A stretch of 64,000 nucleotides of DNA, from NCBI GenBank assembly GCA_022712315.1, contig JALAGS010000080.1, positions 21,209 to 85,208 of the forward strand, given 5' to 3'. This DNA is from Sphingobacterium sp. (lineage in GTDB: Bacteria; Bacteroidota; Bacteroidia; Sphingobacteriales; Sphingobacteriaceae). Each line of letters starts with the position of its first letter. The stretch's first letter is position 1. A program made the position numbers and the translations under genes. Positions 8,899-29,551 of the stretch are shown here, piece by piece. The notes under the pieces were generated by a model that saw only the letters and a list, made by a program, of their open reading frames with translations, made no database searches and had not been told where the DNA came from.

Positions 8899-10968
8899 TT
8901 GAGTATTCTAGATAAAAAACGTTATACCATCACATCGGCATTACCTTATGCCAATGGTCCTTTACATATCGGACACCTTGCCGGAGCTTATATCCCTGGA
9001 GATATCTTTGTTCGTTATCTGCGTCTAAATCAGAAAGATGTAGTCTATGTATGTGGTTCAGATGAGCATGGTGCGGCGATTACCATCCGTGCAAAAAAAG
9101 AGGGCATTACCCCACAGCAAATCATTGATAAATACAACAAACAAATCAAAGAAAGCTTTGAAGAGTTTGGCATTTCTTTCGATATCTATCACCGTACATC
9201 GGAACCTATCCATCATCAGTTATCCCAGGATTTCTTCTTGAACCTTTACAACAAAGGTGAATTTGTCGAGAAATTTTCCGAGCAATACTATGATGAGGAA
9301 TACCACCAATTCCTGGCAGACCGCTACATTACGGGAACTTGTCCAAATTGTAAGTCTGAAGGCGCCTATGGTGACCAATGTGAAAAATGTGGTACATCGC
9401 TAAGCCCGACAGATCTGATTAATCCGATTTCCACCTTAAGCGGAAAGACACCGGTTCTGAAAGAAACAAAACACTGGTATCTTCCTCTGGATAAATATCA
9501 GCCTTGGCTTGAAAAATGGCTGATCGAAGGAAAGAAAAATATGCTGAAATCCAACGTTTTTGGCCAATGTCAATCTTGGCTTAAATCTGGCTTACAACCA
9601 CGTTCAATGACAAGAGATTTGGACTGGGGGGTTGATGTTCCTTTGGCAGAAGCACAGGGCAAGAAACTATATGTATGGCTAGATGCACCGATAGGTTATA
9701 TTTCAGCAACAAAACAATGGGCTTTGGACCATGGCAAAAACTGGGAAGACTATTGGAAAACGCATGAAAATCCAGCAGACGATTCTACATTGATCCATTT
9801 TATCGGAAAAGATAATATTGTTTTCCACTGCATTATCTTTCCGGCAATTCTTCATGCGCACGGTGACTATATTTTACCAGAAAATATTCCTGCAAACGAG
9901 TTCCTTAACCTGGAAGGCGACAAACTATCTACTTCTAGAAACCATGCGGTTTGGTTACATGAGTACCTACAGGAATTCCCCGATAAACAAGATGAATTGC
10001 GTTATGTCTTGACTTCGATATTACCGGAAACATCGGATGCGGAGTTTACCTGGAAAGATTTCCAAGCTAGGATCAACAATGAGCTTGTTGCCATCTTCGG
10101 AAACTTTGTCAATCGGGTAATGGTGCTTTCGCACAAATATTTTGATGGCAAAGTATTGAATGGCTCACCATTAACAGCGGTAGATCAAGCGGTATTGGAT
10201 GAACTGAAATCATACCCTGCTTCGATCAAATCTTCTTTGGAGCAATTCCGTTTCCGTGAGGCTTTGGCAGAATTTATGAATGTCGCTCGTCTCGGCAACA
10301 AATATCTTGCAGATGAAGAACCATGGAAAATCATCAAAACAGATGAGGAACGTGTCAAAACAATCTTACATGTAGCTGCTCAGATCGTGGCCAATCTTGC
10401 TGTTCTTGCACAGCCGTTCTTACCAAAAACAGCGATCAAATTATTTGAAATGCTCAATTTCCCTCAAGGGAACTGGAATGATGCAGGGTCGGATACTTTG
10501 ATCCAAGCTGGACACCAATTGGGTGAAGTGCAATTGTTATTTGACAAAATAACCGATGAACAAGTCGACTTTCAGCTAAACAAACTTGCTGAAGCAAAAG
10601 CGAAAAACCTAGCCGACAACGCCAAGGTTGCTCCTGTAAAAGAAAACATCAGCTTCGATGACTTTGTTAAAATGGATATCCGTGTCGGAACTATTGCAGC
10701 CGCTGAAAAAGTTGCCAAAACCAAGAAATTACTAAAATTGACGATAGACACCGGCTTAGATACACGTACCGTCGTTTCGGGTATCGCGGAGTTCTTCAGT
10801 CCTGAGGAAATCGTAGGCCGTCAAGTATCCATCTTGGTCAATCTTGAGCCTCGTGAAATCAAAGGAATTATGTCACAGGGAATGATCCTGATGGCAGAAG
10901 ACGCTGATGGTCGACTTGATTTTGTCAAACCAGATACAACCATTAAAGTAGGAAGTACAGTACGCTAA
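8899..10968 (+). CDS. metG: Methionine--tRNA ligase with C-terminal tRNA-binding domain (TTG start)
   Basis: [13 protein letters not shown] (HIGH), Zn-knuckle CxxC, KLSTS (KMSKS), C-terminal DIRVG..SQGM OB-fold. Confidence 0.97.
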
Positions 10969-25848: not shown

Positions 25849-26001
25849 AAAGCTGGGTATTTATAATTTATAGGGATGAAAATACTGTAAATCCAGCACA
25901 AAACCAAAAGGCAATTTATTTCCATGAAATAAACTGCCTTTTTGATGCAAACCAATCCATCCAAGCAAGTGGACTAGCTTAGTTTAGAACCGTTTTCCGT
26001 C

Positions 26002-26427
26002 TTAATTAATTCTTTTCCATGTCTCTGTACGTCCAAGCAAGCTTACACCGACATATCCCCTGATATCAAGTTTATCCCCTTTTAAAGTCATCTTGCAGCT
26101 ATACGTTTTGCCCGACTTTGGATCATAAATCTTTCCATCCGCATAAGTATTGCCATCTTTTTCAAAATTGGTCAAGATTTCGAGCCCCTGTACATTTCTG
26201 CTCTGCAACGCTTTATCTGGGTTTTTTATATCTTTCTTTGGCTGACCTGCTTCGTTATTTGGAAATTTCAGCCAAAAGAGCTTACCAAAAAACTTATCGC
26301 CTTTCTTGTAAATTTCAACACGGCCCTCACCGCTTGGATTTTCCCACTTTCCGATAATGGGATCTGTTTGCGCAAATAATGCTACTGTTGTAAGCAACAT
26401 TATGAATGATAACATAACTTTCTTCAT
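26002..26427 (-). CDS. DUF2147 domain exported protein
   Basis: Signal peptide; IIGKW, GKIYDPKSGKTYSC, RGYVGVSLLGRTETWKR. Confidence 0.88.
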   Translation of the reverse strand: MKKVMLSFIMLLTTVALFAQTDPIIGKWENPSGEGRVEIYKKGDKFFGKLFWLKFPNNEAGQPKKDIKNPDKALQSRNVQGLEILTNFEKDGNTYADGKIYDPKSGKTYSCKMTLKGDKLDIRGYVGVSLLGRTETWKRIN

Positions 26428-26785
26428 GAGTCTATTTTTTATGAACTTAAATTCTTCAATCTATGACCTGAACTCTTTCCCATTTTTTCGCACCACCCCC
26501 ATCTAAATTCCTTGTTTAGTGTTCAGGTATCTCCCCTTATCCTTATCCAGCGCCGACCGCAACACTCCTGCTGGACAAACCGCCTAGCAGCTGATGATCA
26601 AAAGCTTGCACCATAGCGCTGAAATAAATATACAAAATATTTACTATGCTTGCATACATTTATTTTCTGTACACTTAATTTTCAAATAAACATAGCATCC
26701 ATTGCGGAACAATAGTTCACACAGACATGAAAAATGTAATGGCGCTTTTTTCGTTTACAAGTTAGCTCGCCACATGTGCGAACTG

Positions 26786-26977
26786 TTCGGGACAGCTTCG
26801 TCCTTTGCTCGCCTTTTGTTCGCCCCTGCTTCGGAAATTCTCTTATGTTTCTCTACAGATTCCCTACTGATGGCCTAACTGCCGGTAGAGAATCTGTAGA
26901 GAAAAGGTAGAAAATGGGTAGAGAATTTCCGAACAAGCTCCGAAGAAGGTCCGAACGGGTTACGAAGAACATACGAA
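26786..26977. repeat. Large imperfect inverted repeat with 11-bp periodic TTCG/CGAA and CTAC/GTAG cores
   Basis: TTCG-like at 26786, 26797, 26808 (CTCG), 26819, 26830; CGAA at 26930, 26941, 26952, 26963, 26974; GTAG at 26885, 26896, 26907, 26918; perfect 13-bp IR 26830-26842/26921-26933; inner 19-bp IR 26849-26867/26885-26903 with 1 mismatch. Confidence 0.9.
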
Positions 26978-26989
26978 GAGGCGTAAAGT

Positions 26990-27006
26990 TTGGCATCGGG
27001 TTTGCA
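26990..27006 (+). promoter_or_regulatory. Sigma54 (RpoN)-type -24/-12 promoter
   Basis: TTGGCATCGGGTTTGCA: GG (26992-93) and GC (27004-05) separated by exactly 10 nt. Confidence 0.65.
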
Positions 27007-27058
27007 CGAAACTGATTATATTATTACTTTATTTACTCTTTATAAATTAGCACATATT

Positions 27059-27400
27059 ATGAAATTTATTATTAGTCTTTTACTTACTGGAGTTGTCGTC
27101 GCGGTTGCGTGCTGGGTCGTACCCGGAGCTCATGTTGCTGGATTCGGCTGGGCTATCGTTACCGGACTTGTCATTGGATTTGTCAATGCGACTGTGGGAT
27201 CGATTTTAAGGTTATTTACTTTCCCATTGAATTGGCTTACACTCGGCCTGGTTTCGTTTATTATTACGGTATTAATGGTCTTGTTGACAGATTCGCTGCT
27301 CGGTTCCAAATTTGATGTAAATGGCTTTTGGACCGCTGCGCTATTTGCCATTGTCGTTGCCATATTGGAAATGATTATTGGCAGCACTTCAAAAGATTAA
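27059..27400 (+). CDS. YvlD/phage-holin-superfamily-IV membrane protein (no phage context)
   Basis: Start at ATG 27059; four TM segments; VPGAHVAGFGWA, VIGFVNATVGSILRLFTFPLNWLTLGL, FWTAALFAIV. Confidence 0.85.
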   Translation: MKFIISLLLTGVVVAVACWVVPGAHVAGFGWAIVTGLVIGFVNATVGSILRLFTFPLNWLTLGLVSFIITVLMVLLTDSLLGSKFDVNGFWTAALFAIVVAILEMIIGSTSKD

Positions 27401-27429
27401 AAATAAGTTTACTGTCGCTATTGCGCATG

Positions 27430-27467
27430 AAAAAGGCTGCTTCACGCTGGAGTGAAACAGCCTTTTT
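27430..27467 (+). terminator. Intrinsic terminator after holin-like gene
   Basis: AAAAAGGCTG..TTCAC/GTGAA..CAGCCTTTTT stem. Confidence 0.8.
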
Positions 27468-27634
27468 GCTTGAATACCTCTTGCATCCTTTCAGGCGCTT
27501 TCCTGATTTAGAATCCAGTGGCCGCGATTTATTCCTCCGATATAAAACGGGGTTTACGATGGTTTTTATCGCTACTTCCCTCTTTTTTTACCCTGGAATT
27601 CGCTAAATTTAATCATTCAAAAGAACCCTGATAT

Positions 27635-29551
27635 ATGTGCGAACACAACCACGAGCATAGCCATACAGCACAAGAACACGGCCACACGATACAGGAACGT
27701 CCCTGGTGGATTTCCCAATGCAAGCTTCTTATTGCGCTTGTCATTCTGCTTACTTTACTGCTATTGAAATATGCTTTGAAGATCAGCCTCCCCTTTAGCC
27801 TCCTGTTAGTCGTAAATGGTATCGCGTATCTTCTCGCGGGCATACCTGTTATTCAGATGGCATTCCGGAAGGCAAGCCGCGGCGATTTTTTTAATGAATT
27901 CTTTTTGATGACTGTAGCAACCTTGGGAGCATTTGCGATCGGAGAATTTGAAGAAGGGGTTGCTGTCATGGTATTCTACCAAATCGGAGAATGGTTTCAG
28001 GATACTGCCGTTGACAATGCCAAAAAATCAATCAAATCACTATTGGATATCCGACCCGATAAAGTCACGGTGCTGCGGAGTGGGCAACAGCAGCAGGTAA
28101 ATCCTAAAACGGTTGCAATTGGCGAGACGATCCTGGTGAAAGCGGGAGAAAAAGTCGCGCTGGATGGTAAATTGACCACAGCGAAGGCCGCATTTAATAC
28201 GGCTGCACTGACCGGGGAGAGCAAACCCGACACAAAATATGCAGGTGACGCTGTTTTTGCGGGTATGATCAATTTGGAAACCGTTGTTGAAATCGAGGTA
28301 TCCAGTGCTTTTGAAGACAGCAAATTGAGCAAAATACTCGAAATGGTACAGGATGCCACGGCACGCAAATCGAAAACACAGTTGTTTATCGCTCGATTTG
28401 CTAAAATATATGTCCCCATTATCTTTGGTCTTGCGTTATTAGTTCTCGTGGCCCCCTTGTTCTTTGTCGACGACTATAGTTTTAAGGATTGGTTCTACCG
28501 TAGTCTGGTCTTCTTGGTGATCAGCTGCCCCTGTGCCTTGGTTGTCTCTATTCCACTGGGTTATTTTGGCGGAATTGGTTTAGCATCCCGAAATGGCATC
28601 TTATTTAAAGGCGGAAATTTCCTTGATGCCATCACCACAGTCGATACCATTGTTATGGATAAAACAGGTACGCTGACAGCAGGTGTATTTGAAGTCAGGG
28701 AGGTTTTTGCCGTCAATGGAAATCAAGAGGAATTGCTGAATTATGCCAAAGCTATTGAGGCACATTCAACACATCCCATTGCGAAGGCAATCGCGGGCTA
28801 TCACCCTGGCAAGCCAGCTTTACAGGCCGAGGAAATTCAGGAAATAGCAGGTCATGGCCTCCAGGCAACGGTCAATGGAAAACGCACCCTTGCTGGTAAC
28901 AGCAAGTTATTGGACAAATTCAATATAAGCTATCCGGAAGATCTAAAGCAAATGGTATATTCCATTGTACTGTTTGCCATCGAAGGTGAGTATGCGGGTT
29001 ATATCACTGTAGCGGACCGGAATAAACCAGACGCAAAGAAAGTTATCAGCGCGATGCGTGCCCAAGGACTTTATACCGTCATGCTATCCGGAGACAAAAC
29101 AGCTGTTGTCAACGAAGTGTCCAAAGAACTTGGGCTCGACAAAGCCTATGGTGATCTCCTTCCGGAGGATAAGGTCAGCCATGTACAGCAACTGATTGAT
29201 CAGGGACGCCGTGTTGCCTTCGCCGGCGACGGTGTCAATGACGCACCCGTCGTTGCCTTGGCACAGGTTGGCATCGCAATGGGCGGACTCGGGGCAGATG
29301 CAACCATCGAAACTGCTGATGTTGTGATCCAGAACGACGAGCCCCGTAAAATCCTGTCGGCTATCAAAATCGGCAAAATCACCCGGAGCATTGTCTGGCA
29401 GAACGTCATCCTCGCGATGGGGATCAAAATCATTGTGCTGATTCTTGGCGCAGGCGGTATTGCAACACTTTGGGAAGCAGTGATTGCGGATGTAGGGGTG
29501 GCTCTTCTAGCTATTTTAAATGCCATTCGTATCCAGCATAAAACGGTATAA
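27635..29551 (+). CDS. Heavy-metal P1B-type ATPase (Zn/Cd/Pb, CadA/ZntA-like)
   Basis: His-rich N-terminus, TGES, CPC, DKTGT, HP, GDGVNDAP; Lys and Asp in the last TMs. Confidence 0.92.
   Translation: MCEHNHEHSHTAQEHGHTIQERPWWISQCKLLIALVILLTLLLLKYALKISLPFSLLLVVNGIAYLLAGIPVIQMAFRKASRGDFFNEFFLMTVATLGAFAIGEFEEGVAVMVFYQIGEWFQDTAVDNAKKSIKSLLDIRPDKVTVLRSGQQQQVNPKTVAIGETILVKAGEKVALDGKLTTAKAAFNTAALTGESKPDTKYAGDAVFAGMINLETVVEIEVSSAFEDSKLSKILEMVQDATARKSKTQLFIARFAKIYVPIIFGLALLVLVAPLFFVDDYSFKDWFYRSLVFLVISCPCALVVSIPLGYFGGIGLASRNGILFKGGNFLDAITTVDTIVMDKTGTLTAGVFEVREVFAVNGNQEELLNYAKAIEAHSTHPIAKAIAGYHPGKPALQAEEIQEIAGHGLQATVNGKRTLAGNSKLLDKFNISYPEDLKQMVYSIVLFAIEGEYAGYITVADRNKPDAKKVISAMRAQGLYTVMLSGDKTAVVNEVSKELGLDKAYGDLLPEDKVSHVQQLIDQGRRVAFAGDGVNDAPVVALAQVGIAMGGLGADATIETADVVIQNDEPRKILSAIKIGKITRSIVWQNVILAMGIKIIVLILGAGGIATLWEAVIADVGVALLAILNAIRIQHKTV

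Follow-up and report, generated by a model that had tools for sequence, protein, structure and literature searches.

Small dispersed repeats such as the repetitive extragenic palindromic (REP) sequences, bacterial interspersed mosaic elements (BIME), miniature inverted-repeat transposable elements (MITE) and BOX elements are known to shape bacterial genomes, each class being defined by one sequence and, where it is understood, by one enzyme. In R1 parC, two blocks of five 11-bp repeats are the substrate of the small protein ParR, which polymerises and wraps the DNA, while the eukaryotic Foldback (FB) transposons carry long inverted arms of short tandem sub-repeats, with variable unit numbers per arm. 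In this study we focus on a phased and mirrored array of short motifs located in a 64,000-nucleotide stretch of Sphingobacterium sp. DNA (GenBank assembly GCA_022712315.1, contig JALAGS010000080.1, positions 21,209 to 85,208, hereafter the window), between a DUF2147 gene and a yvlD-like gene.

Several mobile or repeated elements of bacteria provide terms of comparison. The TnpA transposase of IS1535/IS607 nucleates on four helically phased 9-bp direct repeats (PMC6188088). TnpA dimers occupy phased repeats located 20-60 bp from the end, the filament spreads and captures the other end, and strand exchange occurs over an identical dinucleotide without target duplication (PMC6188088). REP sequences are single hairpins of 20-40 bp with a terminal GTAG or CGTC tag (PMC3733652). 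In the same phylum as our element, BrickBuilt from Porphyromonas gingivalis is a tandem-repeat-containing MITE or minisatellite with a 23-nt unit and with leader and tail parts (PMC4596501).

The element of the window belongs to an apparently undescribed family of small dispersed elements, defined by an exact 11-bp phasing together with mirrored arms, and we class it as a small dispersed palindromic repeat, or MITE-like element. The reading that we favour, tentatively and with somewhat less than even confidence, is that it represents one copy of a non-autonomous mobile element family whose arms are phased protein-binding arrays. An initial annotation, made from the letters of the window alone, knew of no named feature matching the array, and this stands: Rfam returned nothing near the gathering score in the window with E-values up to 10, its search of 14 further array loci at the gathering score gave one tRNA only and nothing relevant, and the open-access literature (11-bp repeats in Bacteroidetes, MITEs of Sphingobacterium, Pedobacter and Flavobacterium, foldback sub-repeats) contained no account of such an arrangement.

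Read in 11-bp steps from position 26786, the element comprises 18 units in a single unbroken register (26786-26983), nine on either side of a dyad centre at 26881.5, with every left core reverse-complementary to its mirror-image core on the right (Table 1). The first four to five bases of the units are conserved and the last six to seven are not. Units of the left outer arm start with TTCG at 26786, 26797, 26819 and 26830 and with CTCG at 26808, and those of the left inner arm with tCTTA at 26841, tCTAC at 26852, cCTAC at 26863 and cCTAA at 26874. To the right of the centre, GTAG units start at 26885, 26896, 26907 and 26918, followed by the outer units (cCGAA or aCGAA) at 26929, 26940, 26951, 26962 and 26973, with their cores at 26930, 26941, 26952, 26963 and 26974. 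The spacers of the left outer arm are rich in pyrimidine and unconserved, those of the right outer arm are rich in purine. Period 11 is also called by Tandem Repeats Finder, an inverted repeat with 31-nt arms (81%) includes a perfect 13-mer, and the only open reading frames (ORFs) overlapping the element are short and spurious.

Most of what the initial annotation had reported for this array is borne out by the register table, namely the mirrored TTCG and CGAA cores at 11-bp spacing with CTAC and GTAG cores inside, the inverted repeats and the non-coding character of the region. Its count of five plus two cores on the left and four plus five on the right is right for the cores named, but overlooks two degenerate left units, the full symmetry being 9 + 9. 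Similarly, its extent of about 190 bp describes the phased part, whereas the real unit is the larger 263-bp indel presented below, at 26714-26976 give or take 2 bp. The additional 72 bp on the left are imperfectly palindromic (AGTTCACACAGACATG ... CATGTGCGAACT) and open with TTCA, a degenerate core; no paralogue of this module was found in the genome to which the window belongs (hereafter the source genome, or G000).

Table 1. Positions in the window of the parts of the phased element, of its junction dinucleotide and of the two conserved features on either side of it.
Feature	Position	Strand	Remark
Whole indel unit, 263 bp	26714..26976		Edges slide by 2 bp, AG fitting either side
Left module, 72 bp, no 11-bp phasing	26714..26785		Inside the 263-bp indel
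Left outer arm, five 11-bp TTCG units (third is CTCG)	26786..26840	+	Register table
Left inner arm, four units CTTA, CTAC, CTAC, CTAA	26841..26884	+	Mirrors the four GTAG units
Right inner arm, four GTAG(A) units	26885..26928	+	Register table
Right outer arm, five CGAA units	26929..26983	+	Register table
AG dinucleotide	26977..26978		Repeats 26714-26715; sole sequence common to both junctions
Sigma-54-type -24/-12 promoter TGGCAT-N5-TTGCA, outside the element	26991..27006	+	Precedes the Phage_holin_4_2 gene
Conserved 40-bp block, outside the element	26626..26665		Holds the palindrome TATGCTTGCATA (26645-26656)

A chance origin of the window array is excluded. The source genome is a metagenome bin of 6.19 Mb (40% G+C, 240 contigs, none below 2.5 kb), in which the pattern (TTCG-N7)x3-TTCG was observed 11 times per strand versus about 0.001 expected from base composition over 6.2 Mb. 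Runs of at least three TTCG or CGAA number 39 at period 11 versus 0-5 at periods 8-10 and 12-14, with 8 runs at period 22, which is twice 11. Moreover, a motif-blind test, in which any non-trivial 4-mer had to occur at least three times and its reverse complement at least three times within the next 250 bp, both at an equal period, yields 22 inverted arrays at period 11 and none at every other period from 7 to 16; the left-to-right register offset equals 1 modulo 11 in half of the pairs. Fifty-six loci carry at least four identical 4-mers at period 11. The gapped-pattern and period scans that had been proposed along with the initial annotation thus place the array far beyond chance, and it is not single-copy.

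The members of the family found in the source genome are simple or composite. Simple members are made of (TTCGG-N6)x4-5 directly followed by (CGAA-N7)x4-6, and composite members have TTCG/CGAA outer arms and an inner module in a common register. The inner module is CTAC/GTAG in the window copy and at C221; the pattern (GTAG-N7)x3-GTAG has its sole occurrence in the window copy. In a 165-bp composite, present in 10 copies and both orientations, the inner module is TACAG, ACCAG/CTGGT, CTGTA. Further core families follow the same plan, with CAGTG/CACTGA, TTAGG/CCTAA, TAGGT/ACCTA, ATCGG/CCGAT, GCAC/GTGC, GTGCG/CGCAC and CGGACT; more than 10 core types are found within this one genome, and most members are without any GTAG. 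The CACTGA family is a dispersed repeat of 200-350 bp with at least 11 copies, 72-88% identical and in unrelated flanks. All these elements are intergenic, in convergent, divergent and tandem gene pairs alike, and the genes beside them are unrelated (pnp, valS, a TonB-dependent receptor, HlyD/OEP, redoxin-domain paralogues).

Across the family, left and right cores are always reverse complements, whichever the core, and cores remain intact while spacers diverge, in paralogues and orthologues. Arms can be unequal, with six and two units in the family of congener G072 and five and 14 in G081, or single, with one-armed arrays of 10-18 units in other genera. Because arms can be so unequal, or single, it is the direct 11-bp repetition that is retained and not arm-to-arm pairing, in agreement with the view in the initial annotation that core identity and phasing, and not a plain stem, are conserved.

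In the source genome, further phased inverted arrays with unrelated cores (CACTGA, TTAGG, TAGGT, ATCGG and GCAC) lie at C112:14122-14210, C204:42839-42935, C38:15771-15850, C179:44144-44265, C72:13887-13997, C188:67613-67720, C85:6935-7010 and C87:36276-36390. In G081 (C14, locus L227:5561-6402, and also L229 and L230), very long TTCG arrays with five and 14 units form part of repeats of about 850-930 bp that are 93% identical. Paralogous SusC-like TonB-dependent receptor genes follow directly downstream, and an open frame coming from upstream crosses the array and continues into the gene. Three paralogous ORFs with redoxin/thioredoxin domains (712-826 aa; L233 on C165, L234 on C231 and L235 on C154) each carry a simple TTCG/CGAA array no further than ~100-130 codons into the maximal ORF; their actual start codons probably lie downstream. 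An unrelated dispersed repeat of ~83 bp adjoins the array at L147:1633-1715 (G000:C5:39733-39815) and has dozens of copies, 76-89% identical, in congeners G005, G008, G010 and G018. Since several arrays lie within about 1 kb of contig ends, phased arrays may break short-read assemblies; no association with rRNA or tRNA was found for the arrays near contig ends or for the long arrays of G081.

Contigs from four public DNA runs of different studies were compared with the window over 25900-28900, and all four contain a contig that joins 26713 directly to 26977, skipping 263 bp, with two letters fitting either side. This joint defines 26714-26976 as the unit, its left edge lying 72 bp outside the phased part and its right edge within the last CGAA core, which it cuts. 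The empty form is the main one in run X3 (depth 112), and a 1715-nt contig spans the empty joint in X8; run X2 contains both forms, the filled one as a 328-nt contig with 0 differences. With flanks 95-99% identical, the contigs come from strains of this species or of one very near to it. The check for polymorphism at the DUF2147/yvlD locus, suggested together with the initial annotation, thus shows presence or absence of the element as a clean 263-bp indel. One of the two readings in the annotation, a new class of dispersed or mobile palindromic element, is supported by dozens of loci, occurrence in 74 of 121 genomes of the genus and presence or absence among conspecific strains. The other, a phased protein-binding array, is plausible.

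At the orthologous locus of five congeners, the flanking genes, the promoter and the 40-bp block are conserved and the intervening stretch differs in each species, without any array; these loci are unalignable in this spacer and only the 2 bp of the AG are common to the junctions. We infer, tentatively, that the direction of the event was insertion rather than deletion. Turnover can also be followed at other sites. The C221 copy, in which TTCG and CTAC are mirrored by GTAG and CGAA, is missing at the orthologous site in four of five congeners; the fifth, G008, has a recognisably homologous outer right arm with the inner cores CCCAC/GTGGG, so that the inner module has either been replaced or undergone a matching change in both arms. 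The C205 copy is retained in G005 and G008 with 81-88% identity (outer arms about 93%), which matches the conservation of the neighbouring genes, and the C5 copy persists in G005 and has half decayed in G008. Copies are thus gained, lost and sometimes kept for long, and in kept copies the cores hold better than the spacers.

In the genus, the four-unit TTCG pattern occurs in 74 of 121 sampled genomes, from 1 to about 250 times per genome, while the reversed control pattern is almost absent and 47 genomes have no TTCG array. A prokaryote-wide scan with the five-unit pattern, using one genome per species, gave matches mostly in Bacteroidota, among them Sphingobacterium alkalisoli, S. daejeonense, S. 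lactis, Daejeonella, Parapedobacter, Chitinophaga, Niastella, Flavobacterium, Capnocytophaga, Prevotella and Tannerella. Outside the genus, an evenly drawn sample of the phylum had the pattern in just five of 249 genomes. TTCG arrays are therefore concentrated in the genus and sporadic elsewhere in the phylum. The genes flanking the S. daejeonense locus are 76-78% identical to those of the source genome, and S. lactis carries a family of the G072 type. The plasmid and phage collections contained no match to the G072 element.

A mechanism can be proposed in which the motifs of 4-6 bp, placed in 11-bp steps, would be bound by a small domain belonging to a recombinase, a transposase or an accessory protein. 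Such a protein could form a polymer on one side of the double helix and bring both arms together, as IS607 TnpA does on helically phased subterminal repeats. The arrays would grow and shrink by whole 11-bp units through slippage or duplication, and modules with new cores could arise, or insert, at the dyad centre, leading to the nested arrangement of outer TTCG and inner CTAC-GTAG cores. The 263-bp unit would have entered, or left, at the AG located 13-15 bp upstream of the sigma-54-type promoter, and this event would push the conserved upstream palindrome about 263 bp further from the promoter. The AG overlap fits the logic of IS607, in which exchange takes place over an identical dinucleotide. 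Membership of a family, the strict period of 11, the indel between strains, the empty orthologous sites of congeners and the better conservation of cores than of spacers are observed, whereas we infer the protein binding, the enzyme and any effect on the promoter.

A number of observations weigh against this proposal. No small IS607-type serine transposase was found in G000, G072, G105, G008, G017 or G081, where the PF00239 matches are large serine recombinases of 490-565 aa or fragments, and TnpB (PF07282) was not found in G000. The Y1_Tnp domain (PF01797) occurs in 30 of the 121 genomes of the genus, mostly array-free ones, and is absent from the array-rich G072, G105, G081, G008 and G017. 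No real IstB was found in G072, G105, G081 and G096, where the best PF01695 match (E about 1e-7) corresponds to background AAA+ similarity, as compared to 1e-50 to 1e-80 in genomes with a real IS21; Tn7-type and Mu-type ATPases were outside this search. Furthermore, all-against-all BLASTP of 970 ORFs from about 80 array loci in many taxa revealed no recurrent neighbouring ORF, and no array pair enclosing a gene, or full-length element with array ends, was seen. The absences in the source genome are weak, as a metagenome bin without contigs below 2.5 kb may be missing insertion sequences. To recognise more than 10 core types, many proteins would be required, or a single one that responds to shape and not to sequence. 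Since the nearest paralogue of the window copy in the source genome is just 72% identical, recent copy-and-paste is unlikely, which leaves cut-and-paste, acquisition through recombination or a deletion in the other strains. The AG overlap itself has a 1-in-16 chance of being fortuitous. Lastly, some copies are as conserved as their neighbouring genes, which pure selfish mobility does not predict and which suggests a constraint at the level of the host.

The search also bears on the link, raised in the initial annotation, between the GTAG cores and REP elements with their HUH transposase. This lead is not supported: GTAG is one of more than 10 cores, no Y1_Tnp match was found in the source genome (a weak absence in a metagenome bin), and Y1 does not track the arrays in the genus. 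A REP/RAYT identity was rejected, the element having no single tagged hairpin and Y1 being found mostly in array-free genomes.

The distribution of the copies in congener G072 opens another perspective. A single TTCG family is present in this 4.2-Mb genome in roughly 100-130 copies, 79-94% identical, which indicates an amplification of the family, and the genes beside the copies are unrelated. In a contiguous 460 kb (G072:C4:1-460000; loci L195-L198 and L203-L222), 13 copies are spaced 24.7-43.5 kb apart with a coefficient of variation of 0.19, and 0 of 200,000 random non-coding placements reached this minimum distance or this regularity. Genome-wide, 0 of 87 intervals are below 10 kb versus 19 expected and seven are below 20 kb versus 34.5 expected (P about 3e-11), with a mode at 25-35 kb. 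Most positions are common to the sister species G105, at 93-95% identity. A second insertion polymorphism was sought at a closely spaced G072 copy in comparison with G105, and the copy is present in both.

Such spacing is what would be expected if the elements were architectural sites of the host, at which a nucleoid-associated protein, a topoisomerase or gyrase, or an SMC-type factor would wrap the DNA or form a filament. The sites would divide the chromosome into loops or domains, and mobility would be no more than their means of spread. This explanation is possible, while clearly less probable than the mobile element that we favour. Indeed, the 11-bp phase is usually kept across the dyad, so that the cores lie on roughly one side of the double helix, the regular G072 positions are largely common to G105, some copies are as conserved as the flanking genes, and ParR on R1 parC, which wraps 11-bp repeats, offers an analogue. 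However, the sites vary between strains and are missing from 47 of the 121 genomes, and the many different cores disfavour a single sequence-reading protein. The regular spacing was seen solely in the one high-copy lineage examined and may belong to the intergenic islands that eight of the 13 copies occupy, where REP-like GTAG hairpins and further small repeats accompany the arrays.

Target immunity accounts for the spacing just as well. If the copies keep a minimum distance d and almost no gap exceeds 2d, this is as expected for random insertion with an exclusion zone at saturation, in the range of Mu-type immunity, and equally for selection for evenly spaced architectural sites. For a mobile element, target immunity at saturation would yield the near-absence of G072 copies closer than about 20-25 kb. 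At a slightly lower probability than the host sites, and as a rather speculative extension, self-spreading phased wrapping or filament sites could act as a new kind of chromosome punctuation, settling regularly about 30 kb apart in high-copy lineages and being either anchors of loops or supercoil domains or the footprint of a ~25-kb target immunity, with a yet-undescribed protein or a shape-reading mechanism as the reader.

The same region of G072 has other repeats of note. On C4, REP-like hairpins with a GTAG tag (GTAGGGTCGA-GCATGC-TCGACC) occur as inverted pairs at L195:9560-9660 and 9785-9810, in islands with arrays; no Y1 transposase match is reported for G072. A segment of 688 bp at L195:14252-14939 (G072:C4) is inverted relative to G105:C2:617267-617955 and may be invertible, being flanked by copies of a dispersed repeat of ~42 bp.

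The arrays could also be neutral by-products, that is 11-bp minisatellites or quasi-palindromes made by slippage and template switching in intergenic DNA, with neither binder nor function. Neighbouring units often have common spacers, one Flavobacterium contains a perfect tandem array of 12 nearly identical 11-mers and alternating 22-bp units are found elsewhere, arm lengths vary freely, and only non-coding DNA is concerned, all of which would agree with such an origin. Slippage should nevertheless give many unit lengths, whereas inverted arrays were found at period 11 only (22 loci versus 0) although their cores and spacers are unrelated in sequence, and intact cores amid diverging spacers, together with ~100-130 dispersed and regularly spaced copies, would go unexplained. 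We consider this origin improbable.

A shade less probable again is a structured RNA or a single-stranded DNA hairpin of REP-like type, which would stabilise mRNA 3' ends, terminate transcription or serve in processing or recombination, with the cores as paired rungs. Eleven nucleotides correspond to one turn of A-form helix, left and right cores are always reverse complements, and the change from CTAC/GTAG in the source genome to CCCAC/GTGGG in G008 is complementary on both arms of one orthologous site. Young copies (C16 and the G072 family) are near-perfect hairpins, predicted folds beat shuffles with z from -2.6 to -5.6 as ladders of short rungs, and many copies lie between convergent genes or after terminators. 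The spacers, however, are mostly non-complementary, which would leave a stem of 4-6-bp rungs between internal loops of 5-7 nt, and with arms of five versus 14 units, or one-sided, most units are partnerless. Asymmetric copies show no orientation bias relative to the neighbouring genes, Rfam gave no match, and no transcript is expected over the window copy, since it precedes a promoter and its neighbouring genes diverge. Six RNA runs contained small shares of the region only. Pairing may all the same have had a role in the origin or the maintenance of arm symmetry, given that the cores are always complementary and that young copies are near-perfect hairpins.

On its right side, the window element is followed 13-15 bp beyond its last core by the sigma-54-type promoter, which precedes a gene assigned by Pfam to Phage_holin_4_2 (yvlD-like, 27059-27400); the DUF2147 gene on the other flank is divergently transcribed. 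The initial annotation had pointed to this adjacency, which is real, but a link between element and promoter is not supported: the promoter is kept in five or more congeners and in conspecifics without the element, and out of four strict TGGCAY-N5-TTGCW sites in the source genome the window site is the only one near an array. For these reasons the adjacency looks like the outcome of one insertion event. It is very improbable, and largely refuted as a general function, that the array is a locus-specific enhancer or upstream activating array for this promoter. In favour of this, it stops just before a textbook -24/-12 sequence, the sites of enhancer-binding proteins lie upstream, and looping depends on helical phase. 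Promoter and gene are nevertheless conserved where the element is absent, other copies stand beside unrelated genes in every orientation, and a better candidate exists in the conserved palindrome at 26645-26656, displaced by the insertion.

This palindrome lies in the 40-bp block, which is 87-98% identical at the orthologous locus of the congeners, and its distance to the GG of the -24 element is about 79 bp without the element and about 342 bp with it. The block is also found at other loci of congener genomes, for instance G017:C1:4299700, G018:C15:392654 and G010:C32:20995, and, with TATGCTTGCATA, it is a candidate operator or enhancer of a small regulon. A TGGCAY-N5-TTTG(C/A/T) motif located about 50 bp upstream of the yvlD-like gene is conserved across the genus (window 26991-27006, loci L002-L012), and in distant congeners the -12 GC of this promoter becomes GA or GT. 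The spacer is variable in other respects as well. The closest congener, G005 (L002), has a (CCAT)7 microsatellite at the orthologue of window position ~26900, the conspecific run X12 has a 12-bp insertion (CCTTATCCCCCT) at 26534 in the DUF2147-proximal spacer, and other runs have several 1-2-bp indels near that position.

What is conserved in this family is thus a geometry, the exact 11-bp step and the mirrored arms, while the motif differs between families within one genome. This geometric conservation points either to DNA-binding proteins of one family that assemble into filaments or to a mechanism sensitive to helical phase. In practice, the elements are strain markers, and they can adjoin promoters, as the window copy does. 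If the G072 spacing is functional, the domain organisation of a bacterial chromosome would become directly testable and the elements would merit recognition as a new kind; if target immunity lies behind it, the spacing reveals a previously unrecognised transposition system.

Compared with the known systems, the element stands closest in architecture to the ends of the IS607 family, with phased direct repeats (10-11 bp there) that are here arrays in inverted arms, and with an indel bounded by a dinucleotide; this likeness concerns architecture only, as the IS607-family ends have two to five motifs of 9 bp and the dinucleotide GG, and our arrays have 5-14 units and AG. Like ordinary MITEs, it is non-coding, 100-300 bp long and intergenic, and varies in presence between strains, and the array family is small, multi-copy and dispersed, with inverted ends. 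Ordinary MITEs, however, have the simple terminal inverted repeats of a known insertion sequence and a defined target duplication, in contrast to the phased arrays and the 2-bp overlap found here. With REP sequences and REPINs it shares small size, an extragenic, palindromic and dispersed character, frequent clustering with other repeats and, in the window copy, GTAG; yet the GTAG of the window forms four phased units with purine-rich spacers and no adjacent GC-rich hairpin. BrickBuilt has a 23-nt unit in one direction, whereas our arrays have an 11-bp unit in two inverted arms. The repeats of parC, a type II centromere, share one orientation, flank the par promoter and stand beside parM and parR; the present arrays have inverted arms, occupy dozens of dispersed chromosomal sites and have no par genes beside them. 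Finally, the Foldback transposons of the Mutator/Foldback superfamily are eukaryotic and much longer, with sub-repeats of 10, 20 or 31 bp, and the comparison with their arms does not imply homology.

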